The notes under the pieces are model-generated. The model did not search any database. It was not told the origin of the DNA and worked only from the letters and a program-made list of their open reading frames with translations. The position numbers and the translations under genes were made by a program. From a virus (taxonomy: Duplodnaviria; Caudoviricetes), in IMG/VR virus record IMGVR_UViG_3300033121_001553, positions 1 through 64,000 of that record: a DNA stretch of 64,000 nt; one strand, 5' to 3'. This document shows, piece by piece, positions 2,067 to 60,526 of this stretch (position 1 is its first letter; each line of letters opens with the position of its first letter).

Positions 2067-3071
2067 ATGTCAAATCCACTTTTTTGGCCATCGATAGAAG
2101 CTTGGTACAACGTAAAGCGTAATGTTAGTAAGTACGACGTTATGCCCAATGTATCAGCAGTCGACTACAAGGGCAAGATAAAGCTGCATGGTACGAATGC
2201 TGCTGTTGTTATCGAAAGCACTGGAGCAGTGAGAGCTCTATCGAGAGCTTCTGTTCTTTCGCGTGAGTCAGATAACTACGGATTCGCAGCTTACGTTGCC
2301 GATCATCTGGCGGAGAGCTATTCGCAGCTATCTCAAACGAACAAGACGATCTACGTGTACGGAGAGTGGTGCGGTAAAGGAGTGCAAAAAGGTGTTGCGC
2401 TATCGCAGCTACAGTCACGTGTATTTGCTATCTTCGCTTGCGTTGTGGTCGACAACGTAACAGAAGCGAAAACATTTATTTGCGAACCCAATGAACTTCA
2501 GCGATTCTCTTTGACTGAACATTCAGCGTACATTCTGCCGTGGATGCATTCGTGCAAGTTGAACGTGCGGACTGACAACGTTGATGAAATCGACAAGATA
2601 AACAAGCTTGTTGAAGAAGTAGAGCAGGTCGATCCGTGGGTCAAGTCAACGTTTGACATCTCTGGCACCGGAGAAGGGCTTGTTATGTACCCATTCGTTG
2701 ATGGCAGATGTACATTTGAGCTTTTTCAAAATTTCGCTTTCAAAGCGAAGGGCGAAAAACATAAAGTTGTCGAAAAGGAAAAGCCAGTGCAAGACAATGT
2801 ACCGTCTGCCGACTCTGTCGCCGCTTACGTTAAACTTGTTCTAACAGACGCTCGGTACGAGCAAGGCGTAAGAGCTACAAATGATGGCGAATTCAAGCAT
2901 GACATGCGTAAAGTCGGCGACTTCATTGCGTGGATGAAGGCTGACCTTGCGAAAGAGACATCCAATATTCTCGAAGCGAGTGGGATACAGAATGTTAAGT
3001 TTGCTTACGATGCTTGCGCAAAAGCAGCACGCGAAAGATACATTGCAGAAGCTAAGAAGGTGACGTCGTGA
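2067..3071 (+). CDS. RNA ligase, Rnl2-like nucleotidyltransferase
   Basis: Motifs KLHGTN, YGEWCG, GEGLV, FKAKGEK. Confidence 0.8.
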   Translation: MSNPLFWPSIEAWYNVKRNVSKYDVMPNVSAVDYKGKIKLHGTNAAVVIESTGAVRALSRASVLSRESDNYGFAAYVADHLAESYSQLSQTNKTIYVYGEWCGKGVQKGVALSQLQSRVFAIFACVVVDNVTEAKTFICEPNELQRFSLTEHSAYILPWMHSCKLNVRTDNVDEIDKINKLVEEVEQVDPWVKSTFDISGTGEGLVMYPFVDGRCTFELFQNFAFKAKGEKHKVVEKEKPVQDNVPSADSVAAYVKLVLTDARYEQGVRATNDGEFKHDMRKVGDFIAWMKADLAKETSNILEASGIQNVKFAYDACAKAARERYIAEAKKVTS

Positions 3072-3200: not shown

Positions 3201-3229
3201 GATGATGCCGACTCAATGTCGGCATCGTT
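3201..3229. terminator. Hairpin between convergent genes
   Basis: GATGCCGAC 3204-3212, loop TCAAT, GTCGGCATC 3218-3226; lies just beyond the TTA end (3234) of the minus-strand gene. Confidence 0.55.
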
Positions 3230-3233
3230 CACT

Positions 3234-3902
3234 TAAAATATCGAATGTGTTGAAGTAGTTTGAACCCGCGCGTACTATCATCGCTTTGATGTTGTCTTCG
3301 CTAAATTTTGTAAGCGATGTTGCTAGACTGACGATACGTTCGTTGTTAGCTGTCATTACAGCTGCTAGCGTAGCGTAGTCATTATTCTTCTCGTAAGCGT
3401 TATTAAGCACAGCAGCATCTGGATCATTTTTGTACACTTCGCAGTCGTCGTTTGGATCTGGTGTCTGCGGATTTTCGTAGTCGTCCAAAGGATACTTACC
3501 ACGTCCGCTACTGTACTGTTTTTTCCATCCGCTACGTGCAGTCTTACTAACATAGGTTCTGTCAGATATGAGTCGTCCAGTTATCTCGTATCCAAGCCCA
3601 TACATCAGCTTACCATCGCCAGCGACCATCTTGACTTGTAGCGCATTGTTGCACGGTAGCTTGGCTTTATTTCTTCCGTAAGTTGGGCCAACCCTGATCA
3701 TTCCAACGACGCGCTTCTGAAACTGCGCAACGTTAATAGTTGCGTCTGGCTTTTTGAGCAGCTCTTCGATTCCATCTGGATCGTACACAACAAGATCGTA
3801 AGTATTTCCGTACAGCAAAACTGTGTTGAGACAGAGCTTTGTATCTGCATCACGAGCAATGCTTTCGATCAAACGTTTGAGATCACTAATACGAATTTTC
3901 AT
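3234..3902 (-). CDS. Leader-bearing hypothetical protein (putative virion/internal head protein), paralog A; ends at TTA
   Basis: MKIRISDLKRLIES leader; DDYENPQTPDPNDDCEVY shared with the neighbour; in-frame TTA at 3234-3236 before the hairpin. Confidence 0.75.
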
Positions 3903-12330: not shown

Positions 12331-12570
12331 GTGAGCAAGACAAGCAGAACGCCATTTCAAACATACTACAAGTTTGTAAAAGAACTATCAGAGAATGATA
12401 AGATCATTGACTTCACGCTTTATAAGCTGAGGCAGCGAGCCAGTCAAACTCAGAATTCAGCAAATAAACTCAACTACGCTAAAATAATCAGCATGTACAA
12501 AAATGGTAAGATTGCTATAGCGTGGAAATGCGGAGCGCCAGTGTATATTGACCTTTCAAAGTTGCAGTAA
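12331..12570 (+). CDS. Hypothetical basic protein
   Basis: 79-aa ORF, GTG start. Confidence 0.6.
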   Translation: MSKTSRTPFQTYYKFVKELSENDKIIDFTLYKLRQRASQTQNSANKLNYAKIISMYKNGKIAIAWKCGAPVYIDLSKLQ

Positions 12571-12590
12571 CATCGTATTATCCACTATCA

Positions 12591-14168
12591 ATGGAAAACG
12601 TAGAGATACCAACGATAGTTGTCGGTGAAGATGCAAGACGTGGTGTGTTGGGTGGTATGCGTGCCGCAGCACGAGTTGTTGGCACGACCATGGGTCCAAA
12701 CGGTAAAACTGTTATCGTCAAGAAAAGCGACGGTAAGCCAATACTCACGAAAGACGGTGTAACAGTGTGTAAGTCTGTCGCATTGAAGCATCCAGTAGAA
12801 ATGATCGGTGCTCAGCTGCTGATGGATGCCGCCAGCAAAACGAATGAACTCGCTGGCGACGGCACAACGACAGCGACAGTGCTCGCGCATGATATGTGCG
12901 AGAAAGCGATGAAGTACATCGTGTCAAACGTGTCTGTGAATGAGCTACGTCGTGGTATAGAGCACGCGACAAATAAACTGTCAGAAGAGCTTGAGTCGAT
13001 CTCAGTCGCTGCTGACTGCGGTAATGTGCTTTCACTTGTCGCTACGATATCTGCTAACGGTGAAGAATCGATCGGCAAGATCGTAGAACAGGCTTTCGCA
13101 AGCGTTGGTAAGAATGGCATAGTGACAGTTGAAGATGCTAAAAGCGCAGTTACGTCGCTTGAGCTGCTTGACGGTGTTAGATTCGACAGAGGATTTATGT
13201 CACCGTATTTCATAACGCATCAAGACAAAATGGTCTCGTTGCTTGAAGACGCAAATATTCTTATCGTCGATGGTAAGCTAACAAGCGCAGCCGATATCGT
13301 TCCAGCAATGCAAGTTTCAGTTGCAGCAAAGCGTAGCTTGCTCATTATTGCATCAGACGTTGAAGCTGAAGCATTGCAGACGCTCATCATAAATAAGACT
13401 CGCGGCGTTGCGAACGTGTGCGCTGTTCGTGCGCCGAACGACAAAACGTTTCTCGAAGATCTTGCGACTGTGTTTGGCGCAACGCTGTTTTCGCAGAGCG
13501 CCGGCATGAATCTCAAGTCTGTCACGAATGAACAGCTCGGTAAGGCAAAGAAGGTTGTTGCTGACTCAAAAACTTGCACCATGGTTTCACCTGGAGCCAC
13601 CAACCAAGCCACACAGAAGCTTCTAAAAGAAATCAGTGATATCCTGCAAGACCCAACTCTATCGCAGGAAGAGAAAGAAAAATTCCAGAAGCGCACAACT
13701 GTTTTGTCATCGAAGGTCGCTCTCATCAGGGTCGGTGGCTCAACAGAGATTGAGCTAGTCGAGCGCAAGCATCGTATAGAAGACGCTGTGTGCGCAGCTC
13801 GTGCAGCGCTAGAGCGTGGTATCATACCAGGCGGTGGCGTATCGCTAGCGCGTATCGCGTCAAAGCTAAAGTCAGCTCTGAAACCTGGAGATCAGCACTA
13901 CTACGGTTCTTACATCGTTTACGAAGCAGCGTCTGCTCCGATGAAACGTATCGTTGACAACGCCGACTTGAACGGCGGTAGCATCGTTGATGCTGTACCA
14001 ACGAGAGAAGATGATGAATGCTACGATGCTGTAGGACGTAAGTGGGTAAAGTGGATCGATGCTGGCATAATAGACCCTCTCAAGGTCACGTTGACGGCTC
14101 TTGAGCACGCATCGTCAGTTGCTGCAGCGTTCGTCACACTCGACGCTGTAGTTATTACTGATGACTTA
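12591..14168 (+). CDS. groEL: Phage chaperonin GroEL; ends at TTA
   Basis: TMGPNG, TKDGVTV, GDGTTTATVLA, FDRGFMSPYF, GIIPGGG, GIIDPLKV; only in-frame TTA at 14166-14168 after VVITDD. Confidence 0.96.
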
Positions 14169-14343
14169 TCTCCCTGGTGATATCGTAGATGTAAGCGGTG
14201 CTTCAAATTATATTGTACCAGCTTACAAAAAGAATAAAATTGGTGTTGTTATCTTTCGTCCAACAGAAGCAACGATAGCTGTAGCGCACGACGGCAAGAT
14301 CATTAGTCTCTTCAATAGCGAAGTGAAACCATACCTAAGTTGA
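14161..14343 (+). CDS. Small hypothetical protein (SH3/KOW-like)
   Basis: YLPGDIV...IGVVI pattern; 60 aa. Confidence 0.55.
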   Translation: MTYLPGDIVDVSGASNYIVPAYKKNKIGVVIFRPTEATIAVAHDGKIISLFNSEVKPYLS

Positions 14344-14350
14344 AAACATC

Positions 14351-14593
14351 ATGTCAAAAAAGAAGCAAGAAGAAGAAGAAGTTGAAGTAGAGAAGTTCGT
14401 TGAACTACGCGGTGTTGTTCTCGAGGCAATGCCAAGCGCAACGTTTATCGTTAGCTGCGATGGTCACTCTGTCCTAGCACGCGTGAACGGTAAGATGCGT
14501 CAGTCTAAGATACGCGTTTTGCCGGGTGACAATGTTGTTGTGCAAGTTTCTCCGTACGATATGAGTTTGGGCAGAATATCGCAAAGGCTCTTA
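14351..14593 (+). CDS. infA: Translation initiation factor IF-1; ends at TTA overlapping the next ATG
   Basis: GVVLEAMPSATF, LARVNGKMR..KIRVLPGD.V.V.VSPYD...GRI; TTATGA junction. Confidence 0.93.
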
Positions 14594-14787
14594 TGAGTCA
14601 TGCTATACTGCCAGGTGACTACGTTGATACGCACATCGCGTTCACACGCGATGTTAGTGTTTTGCGAATCGTACTCTCTGTTAGAAACTACGCGTTCGGT
14701 AAGATACTAACGTTGATATCAGTTACAAGCGACTCGATAGATATTTTTGAAATGGACAGCGCACTTTGCAGAAAGATCAACATCTTA
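14593..14787 (+). CDS. Small hypothetical protein; ends at TTA
   Basis: ILPGDYV start; TTA at 14785-14787 removes a 95-nt overlap and precedes TATTTA at 14793. Confidence 0.55.
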
Positions 14788-14809
14788 CTAGATATTTACA
14801 ACAGACGCC

Positions 14810-15688
14810 ATGAAGAAAAACAAGTACACAGATCTAAAGCTTCAAACAGAAGCAAAAATTTCAAAACTTATCTCGCAGTGCGGTGGTACAGCACTTATTG
14901 CTGAGAGCGTTCTCGCTGAAGACCGTCACGTGTATGTACGTGAACTTGTTTCTGAGGCGGTGAATCACGAGAAGTACACGATTCTAGAAGCATTCGAGAG
15001 CATGACTGGTGATGAAGTTGAACAGCAGTTTGAAGCGATGCTTGACGCTGCTGATCTTGTCTCACGCAGTTTGAAGCTCGGTTCACTTCGTCGTGCTTCA
15101 GACGAAGCACGCCAACTCGGTGCCGCTGAGCAGGGACTGCTCATGGCTGGAACAATCACGCGTCTGCTCATGGCCGTCTCGCATGTTTTCGTTGCTGATT
15201 CTGAGAGCGAGGGCGGAAAGGCAGCTGGAATGGTACGCTCTCTCATGACGAGCCGCGAAGCAACAACATCGTCTCTCATGAGAGCGCTTGCAAGCTTTGA
15301 CGCTGCAGCGCTTGATGTTGATCACGAGGAAGAGGGTTTCTTCTCTCGTTTCAAGAAAGCTGTTGGAATGAAGCGCAGCGGAACAGGCAACATGACAGAG
15401 CGATTCCGCAACGAGCTTATGTCTGTCGTTCGCTCGAAGGCACCGGGCGCAGCACGTCTGCTCGATCTCGATGCGTTTGTTGATGAGCTGATGAACGCTC
15501 AGACATCAGTCGCACGCATGGTGAAGGTGTTCAAGAACTACGAGTCTTACGTACTCGACTACGTTGATAACGACATGCTCATGAGTATGGTAACGCAGCC
15601 ACGTGGCATCATGAACGCGCTAAAGAGCGCTTGGCAAGGTTTCACCAGCGGTGGAGCTCCTTGGACAGGTCGTCAGTCGATGAGATTA
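14810..15688 (+). CDS. Hypothetical protein (possible internal head protein); ends at TTA
   Basis: Preceded by TATTTA; TTA at 15686-15688 just before the terminator. Confidence 0.75.
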
Positions 15689-15706
15689 GTACAAAGCTTA
15701 ATATGC

Positions 15707-15741
15707 AAAAAGCCAGGTGGATTTTATCCACCTGGCTTTTT
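15707..15741. terminator. Bidirectional intrinsic terminator
   Basis: AAAAAGCCAGGTGGAT-TTT-ATCCACCTGGCTTTTT, a perfect 16-bp inverted repeat with U-tracts on both strands, between convergent genes. Confidence 0.9.
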
Positions 15742-16221
15742 TAATTTCTTAATACGCTGTTTTGCAGCTATGCTTTTTGTAGAGTCATTTAGAAGATAAC
15801 CAACTGGACGTTCACTAATATCGTCGTTTTTTGACGCTTCAAACTTTTTAATATTTTCAAGTTTATTTTTTTCATCATCCCAGATGCATTTGATATCTTG
15901 AACAATATCGTTCAGCGCTTGTAGTGAACCGTTCGCAGTCGCGTATTTTTCTTCTGCTTCAAGCTGTAGCTGCAGAATAAGACTTATGCATTGATTTGTG
16001 TATTTTATCGCATACTCCGACTCCTTCACTGTCAGCGTATTTGAATTTCTTTGTTCATAAATTGACTTCAAGTATTCATTAAGTCTCTTTGCACCAATAC
16101 CAAATGCATTTTTTGATGCAAAGAGACTTTTCACTTCCTCTTCGTACGCTTCTTTCTTATTGTCTGCTTTTATGCCAACAAGATATATACCTGCAATTTT
16201 TCCTTCATGAAATTCGCTCAT
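15742..16221 (-). CDS. Hypothetical coiled-coil protein; ends at TTA
   Basis: In-frame TTA at 15742-15744 abuts the terminator. Confidence 0.7.
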
Positions 16222-16227
16222 ACATCA

Positions 16228-17859
16228 TTAATAACCAAAAATCTCAACTGTTATAATCGAACCGCTACGTAGACGCATAGGAAATTTCAAGTCACCAGTC
16301 GCTGCAGCTGTGCCTGGATAAACGTCATTTGGATTCGTTATGCTTGTACCTGGTACAAGCAGTATACCGTTAAGATAAATGTTCAAATCATTGGAAAATG
16401 CGCGGCCAGTGTAGTTAAGCAGCGGCGCATCAAGATTCGTTGGGTAGGTAACGTTAACGTCTGCATTTACAGTCGTGTTAATACCAGCTTGCGCTCTATA
16501 ACGCTTAAGCGAACTTGACAATGAAGATGAAATAAAATTAAATGCTCCGAGTACGGAGTAGTTTGGATAACCTGACTGAAATGAGTTCCACTCAGCAGTT
16601 GACGTTGCGAATGGAATCAAACCACCCGTGTACGTTGATGCGCCACCGTATCCATCACCGAACTGTATGTACGTTCCACCTGACAGTACAAGATTGCTAC
16701 CGCTTGCAGCACGCAGTGTTAGTCCAGCAGCAGAGTCGATCTGACCAGCTGTTGTCCCAATATTAATCTGAGTAGAACCTGTCGCTGCTTGAATACCCAG
16801 CTGAAATGCAGATGGTAGCGAACTAGAAATTCTAAACTGGTTCAGGTTATACGTCAGTGTATTTGCGCCACCAGCATCTGATACAAGCTTCCACAGCTCT
16901 GTAGTACCACTCAAAAATGTCCACGAAACGCCTGCAGCAAGTCTAATGCTAGTATTATCGCTATCAAGCGCAACTGTAGTCGACTGATTATCCAATGCAC
17001 GCTGTAGCGTAATATCTGTCAATGTTGCAAATGCGCTTGAAACAGGATTTGGATAGTCGACAAAAATTGTATTGCTTAGATAAGCATCTTCTGGTAGAGA
17101 GTCAAAGTTAATTCTCTTAACATATGAATACTGGATCACACGTCCGCCAATGTCAGCAGCAGATGCTGACGTAAACGATGATGTACCATTCGTGTTAAGC
17201 TCACGTACGAAAGAAATTTGCGAACGTCTTGTTGTATCATTGAATGCATCGCCAGTCGAAGCGCTTGATTCGACCTGCAGCAAACCGTAGATCTGCTGTC
17301 CACCGTTCGCGTAGCTTGATGTTACAGGATCAAACGTATACGCATCACGCACAATAACAAGATTTTTTGGTGCATTTACAAAAGAACCAGAAATTTGTGC
17401 TACAGACCAACTACCGTAGCTACCCTCGCTACCGCTCAACAACGCAACAAGCGTGCCAGTTGCGTAAGAATCAGTACCAAGCACTATGTAGTCGTTCGGT
17501 GCAGTTCCGATAGAAGAACTCAACAACGCAAAATTTGATCCCGTAGCAACAAATACAAGATTCAGATTTTGCGTTCTAAACAAAAATCTATGCTGCTCTA
17601 CATCTACAAGATCGCTGCCAATTGTATTCAATCCGCGTGCGGGATAGATGCCGTAAACACCAGATACTTGCTGCAACGCATCGTACCAGCTACCCGTAAC
17701 GCTTGCATGTATCATTTGACGCAGCTGTGTTCTTATTGCGTTTAGATCTTCCTGTAGATTTGTAGAACCTGTTTGAAGTCCAACGCCTGTTGTCAGAGCA
17801 TCGTTGAAGCCTTCTGATGAAAATATTTGAGTTGGCTGCGATACGAACGTGCGTGCCAT
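16228..17859 (-). CDS. Putative virion structural / tail-associated protein
   Basis: 543 aa, S/T/G-rich; C-terminal IYLNGILL..G....NDVY..GDLKF motif. Confidence 0.7.
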   Translation of the reverse strand: MARTFVSQPTQIFSSEGFNDALTTGVGLQTGSTNLQEDLNAIRTQLRQMIHASVTGSWYDALQQVSGVYGIYPARGLNTIGSDLVDVEQHRFLFRTQNLNLVFVATGSNFALLSSSIGTAPNDYIVLGTDSYATGTLVALLSGSEGSYGSWSVAQISGSFVNAPKNLVIVRDAYTFDPVTSSYANGGQQIYGLLQVESSASTGDAFNDTTRRSQISFVRELNTNGTSSFTSASAADIGGRVIQYSYVKRINFDSLPEDAYLSNTIFVDYPNPVSSAFATLTDITLQRALDNQSTTVALDSDNTSIRLAAGVSWTFLSGTTELWKLVSDAGGANTLTYNLNQFRISSSLPSAFQLGIQAATGSTQINIGTTAGQIDSAAGLTLRAASGSNLVLSGGTYIQFGDGYGGASTYTGGLIPFATSTAEWNSFQSGYPNYSVLGAFNFISSSLSSSLKRYRAQAGINTTVNADVNVTYPTNLDAPLLNYTGRAFSNDLNIYLNGILLVPGTSITNPNDVYPGTAAATGDLKFPMRLRSGSIITVEIFGY

Positions 17860-17866
17860 ATAAAAT

Positions 17867-18316
17867 TAAATATGGATACGTTGCGAGTATGTTGCTCCCA
17901 CTACGCGGTGCGTAGTTCAAATTTATATTGCTACCAGTAAGAGTGTAGTCATTGCTTGCTCCCTGCTGTTGTAGTATACCATTTACATAAAACATAAGAG
18001 CTGTAGCTGGGTACGGTGTATGTTGAAGTCCGTAATAAATATTTGTACCATCTGCGCTTCCAGAAGGAGTTTCCATCCACGCTATGGTGCTGCCAAGAGA
18101 CGAGCTGACTGAAATTATCAATTCGCCTTGCGCACCAGTATCTGTGATCAGTATACCAGTGCCAGCTTTGATGACACGAGCGTTCGGCGGAATCGTATAA
18201 GAACCACTAACAACAGCGAATTGCGTGTTTTGTATATGAGAATCAATTTGAGGATGAGTATTACTACCAATCCCTTCTAGCTCATCATGATTCTCGATTA
18301 CTCTTACAGCTGTCAT
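17867..18316 (-). CDS. Putative structural protein (beta-sandwich tail module); ends at TTA
   Basis: ETPSGSADGTN..F.VNGILQ..G.SNDYTLTG..I....AP..GS.ILATYPY then TTA; removes a 170-nt overlap. Confidence 0.7.
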
Positions 18317-23700: not shown

Positions 23701-24570
23701 ATGAAAGCGTTGGTGCTATCGGGTGGTGGTGTTAAGGGCGCGTATCAAGTAGGCGTTCTGAAATATTTGCTAGGCGAAAGAAATACAAATTATGATATCA
23801 TCTGCGGCGTATCAGTTGGTGCGCTTAACGCTGCTGGACTTTGCAACGGCAAAAAAACGCCAGCAGAATCAGTCGAATGGCTTGAAAATTTCTGGCTTAC
23901 ACAAATTTGCGGTAATAACTCAATTTACAAACGATGGTTTCCATTTGGCAAACTGCATTCATTGTGGAAACAGTCGATATATAATTCATCGCCGCTGTCG
24001 TGTCTAATAGAACAAAATCTAAGTATTGATGCGATAAGAGCAAGCGGTAAACAAATTGCTGTTGGCGCTGTCTGCATTGATAACGCTAAGCATTATTTTG
24101 CGACGCAAGATAACGATGATTTTCATAAGTGGGTTCTTGCATCATCAAGTTTTCCATGCTTTTTTCTTCCAATCGAGATAGATGGAAAATTGTGGAGCGA
24201 TGGCGGAATCATAAATGTAACTCCACTTGGGCAAGCCATTCGTATGGGTGCAACTGAGATAGACATTATAATGTGCAGCAACCCGTGGAATCCGTCATCT
24301 TGGACATCAAAACGTAAAACTGCAATTCCAGATCAACTAATCCGCACGCTAACATTGATGAGTGAACAAATTATGCGTGTTGACATTAATGTTGTTGGAC
24401 TCAAAAATGATCTTGCAACGATAAATCAGAAATATAAAATAATATCTGTGAATTTGATCATGCCAGAAAGCGAACTCACGAATGATTCGCTTGAGTTTGA
24501 TCCAGCAAGTATACGCGAAATGATCGATATAGGTTACAAAGACGCGTTTAAGATTAAAAAAATAGTTTAA
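23701..24570 (+). CDS. Patatin-like phospholipase 1
   Basis: LVLSGGGVKGAY, GVSVG nucleophile, DGG; 289 aa, TAA stop. Confidence 0.92.
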   Translation: MKALVLSGGGVKGAYQVGVLKYLLGERNTNYDIICGVSVGALNAAGLCNGKKTPAESVEWLENFWLTQICGNNSIYKRWFPFGKLHSLWKQSIYNSSPLSCLIEQNLSIDAIRASGKQIAVGAVCIDNAKHYFATQDNDDFHKWVLASSSFPCFFLPIEIDGKLWSDGGIINVTPLGQAIRMGATEIDIIMCSNPWNPSSWTSKRKTAIPDQLIRTLTLMSEQIMRVDINVVGLKNDLATINQKYKIISVNLIMPESELTNDSLEFDPASIREMIDIGYKDAFKIKKIV

Positions 24571-25850: not shown

Positions 25851-26708
25851 ATGACAAGAGCGTTGGTGCTATCGGGCGGTGGAGTAAAAGGAGCATTTCA
25901 AGTTGGAGCGCTCATGCACAGCATGGGCGATCTTGGACGTGACTACGACATCATCTGTGGTGTGTCTGTTGGAGCGCTTAACGCAGCTGGACTTTGCAAC
26001 GTCAAACGTGGCATGCCGTCGTACGCATCGTCAAATCTCAGGCAGTTCTGGGAGCATGAAGTTTCTAGCAAGACCATCTACAAACGATGGTTTCCGTTTG
26101 GTCGACTTCATTCGCTTTGGAAGAAGTCTGTATACGACTCTTCTCCGCTTCGCAAGCTTGTCCAGTCAAACATCGATTACGAAAAAATACAACGTTGCGG
26201 AAGAGACGTTGCTGTTGGCGCTGTCTGTCTGAATACTGGTGAGATGCGCTACGTAACACAAAAAAATGAAAATTTTATCGACTGGACAATAGCCTCTGCG
26301 AGCTTTCCGATTTTTTTTGAACCAGTAGAGATAGAAGGACAGCTATGGAGCGATGGCGGCATCAACAACATAACTCCGCTTGGGCAAGCCATTCGTATGG
26401 GTGCAACTGAGATAGATGTGATCGTATGCTCACCGCGTGGCAGACAAGGATGGCGTTCGATGACGAAGCGAGCTGTCCCAGATCAGATCATGCGTACGTT
26501 TGATCTTATGTCTGGATGCATCGCCGATAATGACTTGCATTTCTGTGAGCTAAAGAACGATCAGCCGACATTCAAGCATATCGCTGTCAACGTTATCGCG
26601 CCAGAAGCAGAGCTAACAGACAACTCGCTTGACTTCTCACGTTACACGATCGCTCGTTGCATCAATGCTGGGTACGAGTCAGCGCTGAAGACCTTCAGCG
26701 CTTCTTTA
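25851..26708 (+). CDS. Patatin-like phospholipase 2; ends at TTA
   Basis: GGGVKG, GVSVG, DGG; with the TTA stop it is 285 aa and co-terminal with its 289-aa paralog. Confidence 0.9.
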
Positions 26709-43242: not shown

Positions 43243-43893
43243 TTATTTTTTCTTTGTGCCCATTGTCAGGTCACCAGGGCCAGTGCCCCAAGCACGTTTT
43301 CCACCAATCGCACCAGATCCGCCACCAAGCTTTAGATCACCAGAAGAAAAACCAGATCCGCCGCCGCCAGTTCCTGCGAATGGACTGCTACCGTGCGCTG
43401 ATGACATCGAACCTCTGAAGCCTTTCACATTTTCGCGTGCAACGAACTTGAATCCTATCTTAAGCAGTTCTGCTTTGATGTCTTTCGTCAATGTTGTTGA
43501 CGCTTTTTCGACATTACGTCCTGCTATAGCTGACTGGTAATTCCTTGCCAACGCTTGGAGCTCAGCAGCGCTGAACTCTTCTTCATCGTTATCAAGCTTG
43601 TAGTTGACAAAATTTTCGAAACTCTCAAATTCAGGCATCGCACGAAGTTCTTCGATCTCTTCATCGAATGCGTTGTCTTCAACTTTGCTGTAGTGCCCGT
43701 GGCTAGCACCGCGTTTGATGCTATGCTTACGCTCAAGCTTATCTTCATCATCTTCAAGGTACTTTAGATCTGTCGGTGTAAGATCTGTAAAACCAGGCGG
43801 TAGATCAAAAAATCCTTTTGGCTTTGGCGTTGCTTCTAGCACAAGAAGATGTTTTACATAGCTTTCGATAAGAAACTTGAAATTTGAATTCAT
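43243..43893 (-). CDS. Hypothetical (putative internal head) protein; a separate gene, not a nitrilase fusion
   Basis: ATG at 43893 (MNSNFKFLIESYVKHLLVLEA); TATTTA at 43904-43909; Gly-rich C-terminus. Confidence 0.75.
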   Translation of the reverse strand: MNSNFKFLIESYVKHLLVLEATPKPKGFFDLPPGFTDLTPTDLKYLEDDEDKLERKHSIKRGASHGHYSKVEDNAFDEEIEELRAMPEFESFENFVNYKLDNDEEEFSAAELQALARNYQSAIAGRNVEKASTTLTKDIKAELLKIGFKFVARENVKGFRGSMSSAHGSSPFAGTGGGGSGFSSGDLKLGGGSGAIGGKRAWGTGPGDLTMGTKKK

Positions 43894-43977
43894 AGCGCAT
43901 GCATAAATACACATCGCTAAGCAAGTTAATACTACGAATATCTCTAATCTAACTCCCCGTCTCAGATGAGGATTTAG

Positions 43978-44724
43978 TAAAACTTTAACAAGAAGTATCG
44001 ACTGTGATGAGTCTGACGTTGACTGAACATTTAGTCTTCTGTCAATAATCGTGCTGCTTCCAAAACAGTCTTCTCCTTCGTTAACGTTTCCTATTCTATT
44101 TGCAACGATAACAGCAGCGTCGAGTTCTTCTGCGAGTTGTATCCACTCATCTAGCGGACCAGCTGTTTTACCAGTTGCAGAACATGGTACGGCAACGATA
44201 TCAACAGAACCCTTCTTATAGAATTGAACATTTCGTTTGCCGTAGAACGGATGCGATTCACGGTAAAGATTTCTGCTATCACCAGAGATAAGCAAACCAA
44301 CTCGACCAAACGGCGTCATCGCAACTGGTGAAGGATCATCGCCAGGCATCGCCCAAACATGCTCATTACGATGAAGATTGTGTTTACGTGTTTTTGCTAC
44401 AATACTTCCCGCTGGATCAACGAGAGCTGCTGAGTCGTATATACCTCCCTCATTCAGCTCTACGTATCCAAACGCGATATAGCACGCGTTGTCTAGCGCA
44501 AGCTCAGATATGAACTGCAGCTCGCTGCTATCGCTCGTTTGCGCGTGTTCTATCGCTTCGTCTATGGTTGAGATCTTGCTACCGTTGAACGAACGTTCTG
44601 GCAAAACGATGAGCTTTGCGCCGCCAAGCGCAGCAGCACGAACCATCGCTGCGATCTTTTTCTTCATTTGATCTTGCGACTTCTCATCCCTATACTGCAG
44701 CGCAGCTACTTTCACAGAGCTCAT
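43978..44724 (-). CDS. Carbon-nitrogen hydrolase (nitrilase) family; ends at TTA
   Basis: VAALQ, LIVLPE, YDSA, RKHNL, GLLISGD, VANR.G; 248 aa when stopped at TTA 43978-43980. Confidence 0.85.
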
Positions 44725-55203: not shown

Positions 55204-55226
55204 CGTCGTGCGCTCCCGTAGCATTT

Positions 55227-58200: not shown

Positions 58201-58736
58201 CTTACTATTACGTCTTTTCCATATTCTTTAAGCATTGCTCTGTCAATGCGAGGAAACTTATAGAACCCTCGCTTGTTAGACAGCGAAACAAGCTTAAAAA
58301 TATTCTTCAGTCCTTCAGACGACTTCGCTAGCAGCACAAGATGATGTCGACGCTTTACAGGATTGAACCACTTGCTTGCATCTTTTGTCTCTTCTTCGTT
58401 CTCTATTGTGCTGCCGTCATCTTCATCTGACTTTTTCTTCTTTTCTCGCATCTCTTCTAGATGCGCTTCGTAGTGTGCACGCCATTCAGTCAAGTCGGGA
58501 TGATAGTACGCTTCAACGCCGGGAAGAAATTTGAATTTCTTCCCCGCTTTGTTCATGGCAACTGAATTTTGATGCGCATGCGGAAACATGTTCATATTTC
58601 CATGATCTGTAAGTGCAAGCGCATCCATGCCATTCTCAAAAGCGAAGTTCTGATGCTCGTCTGGATACCCAAGCCCGTCCATCATCGAGCCAACAGAATG
58701 CGCATGCAGTCCAACGAATTTTTTTGGAGCGTTCAT
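55227..58736 (-). CDS. dnaE: DNA polymerase III alpha subunit; ends at TTA
   Basis: PHP domain HAHS..DG, TDHG, GRGSG.GSLV, PDVDTD, KFDLLGL, YAFN.SH, OB fold; only in-frame TTA before the track's stop checked at 55227-55229. Confidence 0.97.
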
Positions 58737-58738
58737 CT

Positions 58739-58963
58739 TTATTTGCTTTCGTCAGCAACAACTACACCGTTGCTAAGACACATATTACATTTGTAGTGTT
58801 TATGTGGAATTACTATATCGCAGCTTCCACAGAATATCATCTCAATGATATTTTGCTTGCTGCCATAACAAACATAGCTGTCTACGTAGCGTGAATTACG
58901 TAGACAGCTATGACATGTCGTTACTTCGCAAGCAAGCAAAGAGCTCAACGAACAGAGCTTCAA
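58739..58963 (-). CDS. Small Cys-rich (Zn-binding) hypothetical protein
   Basis: Several CxxC pairs; ATGA coupling with dnaE. Confidence 0.5.
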   Translation of the reverse strand: MKLCSLSSLLACEVTTCHSCLRNSRYVDSYVCYGSKQNIIEMIFCGSCDIVIPHKHYKCNMCLSNGVVVADESK

Positions 58964-59283
58964 GTTTTTCTCAGACGGTTAAAAAATCTCTCAGCAGAAC
59001 GCATCGCGTGTTTGATGTACGCAGATCCAGTTGGATTCGAAGAGTGAACATCCCACTCTGGAAATCCATTTAGCTTTCCAAGAGCAGCGAGCTTTTCTAT
59101 GTAACACGCGACAACATAACCGCTTGCTGACTTTTCACCGAGATCGTGATCGAAAGAGATGTGTGTTACATCACCGCGTTTGATCAGTCTACAAGCTTGC
59201 AGCGCAGTTTCGCAGCCGATCCATCCAGCCGGTGTTCTACGATCGCAGTCTTCGTTGCACTTATCATCAAGCCAGACTTTCAT
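58960..59283 (-). CDS. Cyclic-phosphate-processing receiver-domain-like protein
   Basis: KVWLDD..R..P.GW, ISFDHDLG..GY, HSSNP.G; ATG follows an in-frame TTA. Confidence 0.78.
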   Translation of the reverse strand: MKVWLDDKCNEDCDRRTPAGWIGCETALQACRLIKRGDVTHISFDHDLGEKSASGYVVACYIEKLAALGKLNGFPEWDVHSSNPTGSAYIKHAMRSAERFFNRLRKT

Positions 59284-59683
59284 TTTTAACCTCGGCGGGA
59301 GCAAAGCAGAATTGCTTTCCGCAGCTGAAGCATGAAATCGTGAAGTGTTCGAACGGGTGCAGTTCGCATTTCTTTACGATCATGTTTTTCTTTATGACGA
59401 AAATCGTTTCAAGACCGCAAAACTTGCATGTGAATTTGTGCGTATATCCGTCTTCCGTGCATCGCATTCGGTATTTGTTGATCGGCAACAAATTGTTGCG
59501 CTGCGCTTCGAGGTCACGTTTTTCAGATGTTCTGTACGTTTCTCTGCACGTTTCCGGAAACCCCTTTGCATCATCGTCTTTACTTTTGAACTTCGATTGT
59601 ACGCACGTAGTCAAAAGTACAACCACAGTCATCGCCCAAGGAAGAAACAACAAAACGATGAAGGTCATTTTATCGATCGACAT
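59267..59683 (-). CDS. Membrane-anchored Zn-ribbon protein; a separate gene
   Basis: ATG at 59683 (MSIDKMTF), TM segment, CKFCG and CFSCG. Confidence 0.6.
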   Translation of the reverse strand: MSIDKMTFIVLLFLPWAMTVVVLLTTCVQSKFKSKDDDAKGFPETCRETYRTSEKRDLEAQRNNLLPINKYRMRCTEDGYTHKFTCKFCGLETIFVIKKNMIVKKCELHPFEHFTISCFSCGKQFCFAPAEVKNESLA

Positions 59684-59698
59684 GATCAAATTTGCGCG

Positions 59699-60526
59699 TA
59701 ATATCTCAAACACAAACTGCACTTTTGGATCACCGTAGTCAGCGTCACCAACGTTCACAAGTACATTCTTCATTTCAAGATGCCTGCATCGACCATGCGT
59801 ATGACCGCTGTATATCTCGAACAGAACATTTTCGTGTTCTTCGGCACGTTCGGATATGAGAGCGCCAAGCGAAGCATTACAGTACCATGGAAGAAATCCA
59901 GTACCTGACTTCGTTCCTCTGTACATACAAGCATCAACGTAAGGCGGCACATGCGTAGCGATGATGATTTTTTTCGCACCATCAGCAAGCGCTGTATCAA
60001 TTTTATTGATAAGCGCATTGTTATCATCACGCGCTATTTGCTTCGCGCATCGAGCGACAACATCTTTCATTGTGTTAAGAATCTGCGGCGACAGCACACC
60101 GCCTGTCGTCATCATGAATTCTTCTATTGAACGCCAGTCGTTCATGACAAAGTTAGCTGCGTTGTAGTTACCAGCCAACGTATCGTACCAGCCGTCGCAT
60201 CCAACAAGCGCAACATCACCAAAACGTATTGGCGTAGACTGCGTTAGATAAACAAGATCTTCCAGCTTCGACAACGCAGGAAAAACTTTTTTACGCATCT
60301 GTTTGATGCTGCCACCGTAGTAGTCGTGGTTGCCAGCAACGTAATAAATCGGCAGCAATGTCAGCTGCTGTAGTTGCGTTAGATGACTAGCGAAGTCTAT
60401 CGAGTTTGAGATATCGCCCGTGAGCAACACAGCATCAGCGTCTTCACACGATATGCGAGACGCCAGCTTAAGTGCGCAGTCACGGGCACTATCGAGGTGA
60501 ACATCGGTGCACCATGCTATCTTCAT
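59699..60526 (-). CDS. Calcineurin-like metallophosphoesterase; ends at TTA
   Basis: TDVH, TGD, AGNHD, THVPP, SGHTH; 275 aa when stopped at TTA 59699-59701. Confidence 0.9.

Follow-up and report, generated by a model that had tools for sequence, protein, structure and literature searches.

Convergent genes and the hairpin between them

Two genes of no assigned function face each other at positions 14810-16221 of the window, the 64,000-nt stretch analysed here, which comprises bases 1-64000 of a 186,819-bp IMG/VR virus record (contig G000). Under table 11, the two open reading frames (ORFs) converge and overlap by 76 nt. The features of this locus, and of a second site considered below, are as follows.

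14810-15799, plus strand: ORF under table 11, 329 aa
16221-15724, minus strand: ORF under table 11, 165 aa
14810-15688, plus strand: gene, function not assigned; 292 sense codons, then the putative terminating TTA
15686-15688, plus strand: TTA ending the plus-strand gene; in frame, codon 293, the first TTA in the ORF
15689-15799, plus strand: pseudo-tail of the plus-strand ORF; 36 codons and a TAA added by table 11
15742-16221, minus strand: gene, function not assigned; 159 sense codons, then the putative terminating TTA
15742-15744, minus strand: TTA ending the minus-strand gene; in frame, codon 160, the sole TTA of the ORF; abuts the hairpin
15707-15741, both strands: perfect inverted repeat with arms at 15707-15722 and 15726-15741 (16 nt each, 100% complementary) and a 3-nt loop
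15723-15725, both strands: loop of the hairpin, with TTT in this phage and AAA in some strains
14785-14787, plus strand: TTA ending a small upstream gene (14593-14787), 22 nt before the ATG at 14810
3902-3234, minus strand: gene at the second site, with its TTA at 3236-3234; the standard-code ORF is 3902-3213

The pseudo-tail of the plus-strand ORF crosses the spacer, the predicted terminator and the 3' end of the facing minus-strand gene, and it contains two further in-frame TTAs (15698 and 15749), whereas the gene bodies have none. The standard TAA of the minus-strand ORF lies, in this strain, within the hairpin loop (15726-15724), 5 codons past its TTA. True read-through of the terminator in this strain is thereby confined to the plus-strand ORF, which continues for 58 nt beyond the T run. 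The plus-strand protein is a member of a phage-associated family, and searches of Pfam and PHROGs returned no name for either gene or for this family. The TTA stop at 14785-14787 would abolish a 95-nt table-11 overlap of the small upstream gene with the 14810 gene.

The contig as a whole has a GC content of 0.43 and a completeness of 52% by CheckV, i.e. about half of a genome. It encodes a T4-like portal protein, a major head protein, GroEL, a DnaE-type polymerase and a homologue of initiation factor IF1, and its source virus is a large uncultured T4-like phage. The gene for the IF1 homologue, a translation initiation factor, lies two genes downstream of GroEL at 14351-14596 of the window (plus strand; PF01176, 70 bits against a cut-off of 30.2) and is kept in all strain loci, which is of note given the altered termination code proposed here.

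The initial annotation had described convergent ORFs that overlap under table 11 and end at 15688 and 15742 if TTA is a stop, flanking a perfect 16-bp hairpin with U-tracts. These coordinates were verified in the sequence and the hairpin was confirmed, with the nuance that 5 of its 16 stem pairs are formed by A5/T5 runs that double as U-tracts, leaving a core stem of 11 bp. An A5 run precedes the inverted repeat and a T6 run follows it, and the spacer between the two TTA stops is 53 nt. The predicted RNA fold has an energy of -28.9 kcal/mol on the plus strand (z -5.45) and -30.2 kcal/mol on the minus strand (z -5.67), and none of 200 shuffled controls folded as well on either strand. The stem would be followed by U6 on the plus-strand transcript and by U5 on the minus-strand transcript. 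No Rfam family reaches threshold at the hairpin. The stem arms are identical in all six strain loci that we compared; because they never vary, they provide no covariation support for the hairpin. Strict intrinsic terminators are few in this genome, with only 13 in 187 kb.

This palindromic stem-loop is most likely a two-way intrinsic terminator that ends transcription arriving from both sides, a prediction made by resemblance. As in bidirectional Rho-independent terminators, a perfect GC-containing stem, preceded by an A run and followed by a T run, lies between convergent gene ends; it differs from them in that the flanking stops are TTA and that its role as a terminator is a prediction. A further strong terminator is probably formed by a hairpin at 58873-58912 of the window (minus strand), which has a 16-bp stem, a loop of 8 nt and a T-rich tail and separates the ORF at 59304-58960 from the DnaE start at 58736.

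The same geometry had been reported at 3201-3236, and this was borne out for one of the two genes there. The TTA of the minus-strand gene (3236-3234) does lie just before a 9-bp hairpin (3204-3226), with the standard TGA in the loop. However, this hairpin has no good U-tract, and the plus-strand gene, which encodes an RNA ligase, ends on a TGA at 3069-3071, 130 nt away.

Variation of the locus among strains

Strain variants of the locus were drawn, from other assemblies, from the 90%-identity protein clusters that contain the two proteins. The strains compared are 96-99.9% identical in DNA, and they include six strain loci (L054-L057, L061 and L062), all of which keep the TTA at 15686-15688. 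The body of the plus-strand gene is 99-100% conserved in seven strain variants, and the minus-strand variants are identical up to the TTA, after which 5 or 22 more residues follow. Under the standard code, by contrast, the plus-strand product of these strains would be 329, 304 or 296 aa long and the minus-strand product 165 or 182 aa long. The TTA of the minus-strand gene is also kept in L054, where the standard-code ORF extends to 182 aa.

These differences in length follow the orientation of the hairpin loop, which reads TTT in this phage, L061 and L062 and AAA in L054-L057; the ORF pair (plus/minus) is 329/165 aa with one orientation and 304/182 aa with the other. Because the two genes share their phase with respect to the centre of the palindrome, a flip of the loop transfers the in-loop TAA from one strand to its complement. 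Read with the standard code, one protein would gain 25 residues at each flip and the other would lose 17, whereas with a TTA stop neither protein changes. Opposite loop orientations are seen in loci L061 and L054 despite 99.91% identity across 6,990 bp, and likewise in this phage and L056/L057 at about 99% identity. The loop is thus inverted within both strain lineages, which implies that it flipped at least twice recently. Hairpin-loop flip-flop inversions have been described for short inverted repeats in plastid DNA, where a loop between perfect arms is likewise recurrently reverse-complemented among very close relatives. In the present case, by contrast, the flip provides a natural test of whether the sequence is coding, as a TAA swaps strand without visible cost. 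The plus-strand pseudo-tail, moreover, is shortened to 11 or 3 codons in other strains, and L057 tolerates a 1-nt deletion 7 nt past the TTA of the plus-strand gene, which gives the 296-aa form.

The initial annotation had named conservation of the C-terminal extensions in orthologues as evidence that would count against its reading. The extensions are not conserved; loop inversion and the 1-nt deletion alter the tails while the gene bodies are kept. It had also argued that a terminated plus-strand transcript would otherwise contain no stop codon, and this argument is strengthened by the strains, because either loop orientation leaves one gene without a standard stop before the terminator, whereas a TTA stop always ends both genes ahead of it. 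These observations bear directly on the standard code, under which TTA would be a rare codon for leucine that is admitted only close to gene ends, the tails would be translated and the plus-strand protein would have 329 aa and a hydrophobic C-terminus. The ORFs are indeed open under table 11, and public-database gene callers predict the 329-aa form. Yet tail lengths then shift by 17-33 residues between near-identical strains, and one of the two genes is always without a stop before the terminator.

The contrast between bodies and tails extends beyond this locus. In a genome comparison with the 96%-identical strain L054, 11 of 11 terminal TTAs were kept, as was every aligned genuine standard stop. 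Substitutions by codon position amounted to 3.7/2.2/15.1% in gene bodies and 5.0/6.5/5.3% in the tails (Fisher p 0.003), such that the tails show no codon periodicity. L054 has a 2-nt indel after the TTA at 17867. In GroEL, whose TTA is at 14166-14168 (plus strand), the TGA three codons further on (to 14180) is replaced by CGA in L054 and L061, and public gene calls consequently give GroEL 548 instead of 529 aa. The sequence that follows UUA therefore behaves as non-coding, with 1- and 2-nt indels, loss of the next stop and loop inversion all tolerated, and we take the pseudo-tail at 15689-15799 to be non-coding as well.

Homologues and relatives

An exhaustive, profile-free search with the 292-residue plus-strand body yielded 26 distant homologues (E values of 4e-20 to 6e-4). 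Of the 16 that were aligned, ten stop within a glycine-rich GGxAPxxG(R) stretch that aligns to residues 281-292, immediately ahead of the TTA. Most homologues thus end where the TTA lies, which argues further against translation of the tail as predicted by the standard code. The minus-strand protein has no homologues outside its own 90% cluster. Because this gene lacks outside homologues and has a standard stop only 5 codons past its TTA, the case for its end depends on strain variation and on the genome-wide rule described below.

Relatives of the phage were sought with the locus and with its DnaE. Among cultured phages, there was no match to positions 12500-18000 by megablast or to the plus-strand protein by tblastn, and the best DnaE identity was at most 31%. 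The search for related loci returned no viral contig for the plus-strand protein, and five related records contained no homologue of it. When bacterial genomes were scanned with DnaE, the only match, at 28%, was to a Clostridiales MAG and gave no clue to the host. In IMG/VR, however, we found 51 loci with DnaE relatives at 38-54% identity. All 40 full-length DnaE relatives examined end 1-12 residues past the aligned end, and 38 do so within 5 residues; the DnaE ORF of this phage, by contrast, would extend 39 residues beyond its TTA under the standard code. In addition, the SbcD/Mre11-like phosphoesterase encoded at 59267-60526 of the window (minus strand) has a TTA at 59701-59699 that aligns with the TGA of its homologue in the L003 record. 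UUA is therefore found where homologues terminate in DnaE, the SbcD-like gene and the family of the 14810 gene. Past the TTA of the SbcD-like gene, 143 further codons in the same frame match nothing in Pfam; these may form a small gene of their own or an insertion that L003 lacks.

Within the genes of relatives of similar GC content, TTA occurs 10-30 times per 1000 codons. The L003 record contains the closest DnaE relative (53% identity), and a 15-kb sample of it had hinted that it shares the TTA-stop trait. This was ruled out when 47.7 kb were read; its TTAs are spread through its genes (15 in 7,395 central codons) with no terminal enrichment. Among the lineages sampled, the TTA-stop trait is thus specific to that of this phage.

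In-frame TTA codons throughout the contig

We examined codon positions in a set of 173 non-overlapping ORFs of at least 100 aa, which cover 94% of the contig. By decile of ORF length, in-frame TTAs number 18, 3, 1, 4, 3, 5, 3, 6, 14 and 46, while other codons are flat. Among 38,784 central codons, TTA was counted 7 times, and among the 1,730 codons of the last ten positions 38 times; its enrichment at ORF ends is thus 114-fold, followed by that of CGG at 5.5-fold. Inside genes, CGG occurs about 0.5 times per 1000, which is near the rarity of TTA; its end enrichment is not comparable, and it looks like ordinary rare-codon avoidance. All seven central TTAs sit at gene boundaries within three ORFs, those of the SbcD-like protein, of the scaffold and major capsid protein and of a CN-hydrolase, each of which consists of two same-frame genes, and no central TTA remains once these ORFs are split. 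UUA is therefore absent from gene interiors yet common out of frame.

When ORFs with a TTA in their second half were taken to end at the first such codon, stop usage was TGA 81, TTA 58, TAA 29 and TAG 5. TTA would thus end about one gene in three, including the genes for DnaE, GroEL and the major capsid protein, and among all 61 sense codons it is the cheapest to read as a stop. Downstream of a terminal TTA, the frequency of additional TTAs is 13.2 per 1000, which approaches the background of the trinucleotide (14.3) and far exceeds the value for the central parts of ORFs (roughly 0.6). The median distance from TTA to the next standard stop is 6.5 codons, compared to 7.0 codons from a true stop to the next stop (KS p 0.91), and backup stops after TTA are not in excess. 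Reading TTA as a stop also resolves same-strand overlaps between neighbouring genes: TTA at 55229-55227 is followed by an ATG at 55224, TTA at 17869-17867 by an ATG at 17859, and TTA at 14785-14787 by the ATG at 14810.

Against TTA as a leucine codon, TTA occurs in the tails at background frequency, their substitutions are without codon periodicity, and TTA-to-stop distances match those after true stops. Together with the strain variants and homologue ends, this leaves the standard-code reading very improbable and already largely refuted. The proposal of the initial annotation, that the two TTA stops flank the hairpin and support a recoding, is in turn supported by strain variation, homologue ends and the genome-wide statistics.

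A further explanation would attribute the terminal TTAs to assembly or sequencing artefacts, or to a +1 slip on TTA-A/G onto TAA or TAG. Both TTAs at the locus do precede G or A (TTAG and TTAA), as a slip would need. Identical TTAs, however, are present in independent assemblies from at least six samples. Samples in which the phage occurs are ERZ17987222, ERZ17987696, ERZ17988280, ERZ27283013, SRR8944129 and SRR6837571. The base that follows a terminal TTA is A in 17 cases, C in 13, T in 16 and G in 7, such that fewer than half could slip onto a stop; because this base is unconstrained, we reject the slip, and the likelihood of this explanation as a whole is next to negligible.

Other genes that end on TTA

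At the boundary of the genes for the scaffold and the major capsid protein, the latter confirmed by phrog_138, a TTA, a GGAG and an ATG follow in succession. A CN-hydrolase is contained in a 493-aa table-11 ORF at 43243-44724 of the window (minus strand) and ends at a TTA at 43980-43978; its Pfam domain stops 4 residues short of this TTA. The next 60 nt contain three additional TTAs and are followed by another gene in the same frame, to which no function was assigned. Two patatin-like phospholipase genes (23701-24570 and 25851-26708 of the window, both plus strand) are less than 3 kb apart, and the second ends on a TTA within a T run after a 9-bp hairpin (26681-26702).

Reading of UUA

We conclude that, very probably, the two facing genes end at TTA around a predicted two-way terminator and UUA serves as a fourth stop codon throughout this phage, likely read by a factor of the RF2 type. 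Translation of the plus-strand gene would end at the TTA at 15686-15688 and that of the minus-strand gene at the TTA at 15744-15742. The most likely reader of UUA, we infer, is an RF2-type class-I release factor with relaxed recognition of the second codon base, which a host without tRNA-Leu(UAA) would supply. UUG would remain a leucine codon through tRNA-Leu(CAA).

Organelles provide precedents for such a reader. UUA is a stop in peDinoflagellate plastids, and UUA and UUG are stops in the mitochondria of Marsupiomonadales and Pseudoscourfieldia (PMC12574857). Replacement of a conserved serine of RF2, Ser204, by Ala, Gly or Cys has been associated with UUA stops in organelles, and changes in RF1 with UUA/UUG stops (PMC12574857). 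In this phage, no RF-1 domain and no release factor was found in the 187-kb contig, which represents about half of the genome. The T4-like portal protein has a weak PCRF match in its C-terminal tail (105241-105333 of contig G000), which was dismissed as spurious. Twelve tRNAs are encoded on the contig, none of which is a tRNA-Leu. Gene ends, non-coding tails and the genome-wide TTA pattern were established by comparison of sequences; for the reader of UUA, by analogy with the organelles, a host RF2 with a Ser204-type change together with loss of tRNA-Leu(UAA) would be our best guess.

The same sequence pattern is expected if UUA is unassigned and has no tRNA, so that ribosomes stall and the peptide is freed by rescue (ArfB-like, ArfA/RF2, or drop-off and peptidyl-tRNA hydrolase), and the contig, with neither a release factor nor a tRNA-Leu, is compatible with this mechanism. 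Rescue in each round would be slow, though, for about a third of genes, and there is no surplus of backup stops after TTA. Under rescue of the tmRNA type, the proteins made from these genes would be tagged for degradation. Moreover, the organelle precedents indicate altered release factors. Because the major capsid protein, GroEL and DnaE end on TTA, termination there must be efficient, which favours a release factor; we regard stalling and rescue as unlikely. On balance, we lean towards UUA being a genuine release-factor-read stop in a bacterium-phage system, which would make it the first sense-to-stop change outside organelles. That reading would imply either an undiscovered lineage of bacterial hosts or a condition imposed by the phage, in which four codons signal stop, tRNA-Leu(UAA) is missing and RF2 is relaxed.

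Relation to known codes

The UUA-stop code of labyrinthulean (Thraustochytrium) mitochondria is NCBI table 23, and the phenomenon reported here is a known one, a table-23-like code, in a new setting. As in organelle UUA-stop codes, UUA is missing from gene bodies, occurs at the stops of homologues and is used beside standard stops, and, as in those organelle codes in which only UUA changed, UUG stays sense. In contrast to these small organelle genomes, we are dealing with a phage of at least 187 kb and with bacterial cytoplasmic translation. The organelle cases are marked by an altered RF2; in the present case, the search for release factors covered the phage contig. To our knowledge, sense-to-stop changes have been reported only in mitochondria and plastids, and all published code changes in phages and free-living bacteria are stop-to-sense changes or amino-acid swaps. 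Our literature search found no report of a UUA stop in a phage or a bacterium.

One consequence is that standard gene callers would mis-annotate about a third of the genes of this phage by adding false C-terminal tails, creating overlaps and fusing genes, as with scaffold and capsid. A new stop escapes screens in which the meaning of a codon is deduced from aligned amino acids. The locus itself offers a compact experimental handle, with one hairpin, two TTA stops and natural strains in both loop orientations, and the protein lengths and transcript ends predicted for it differ sharply between the two codes.

Stop-recoded phages (Lak, crAss-like and others), in which TAG or TGA encodes an amino acid, resemble this phage in that table 11 mis-calls their genes. 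The direction of change is opposite, from sense to stop here, and reading TAG, TGA or TAA as sense merges no genes of this phage. Accordingly, table 11 gives fragmented ORFs in stop-recoded phages and over-long, overlapping ORFs here. With TAG as sense, the number of ORFs of at least 300 aa was just 83 instead of 80, much as in the TAA control (86), and genes were not merged; this reading was set aside. A further likeness to stop-recoded phages is an amber-type tRNA among the 12 on the contig. This amber-reading tRNA, with anticodon CUA, was detected by ARAGORN outside the window, at 154237-154308 of contig G000 (plus strand), in a genome in which TAG ends only 5 of the 173 ORFs.
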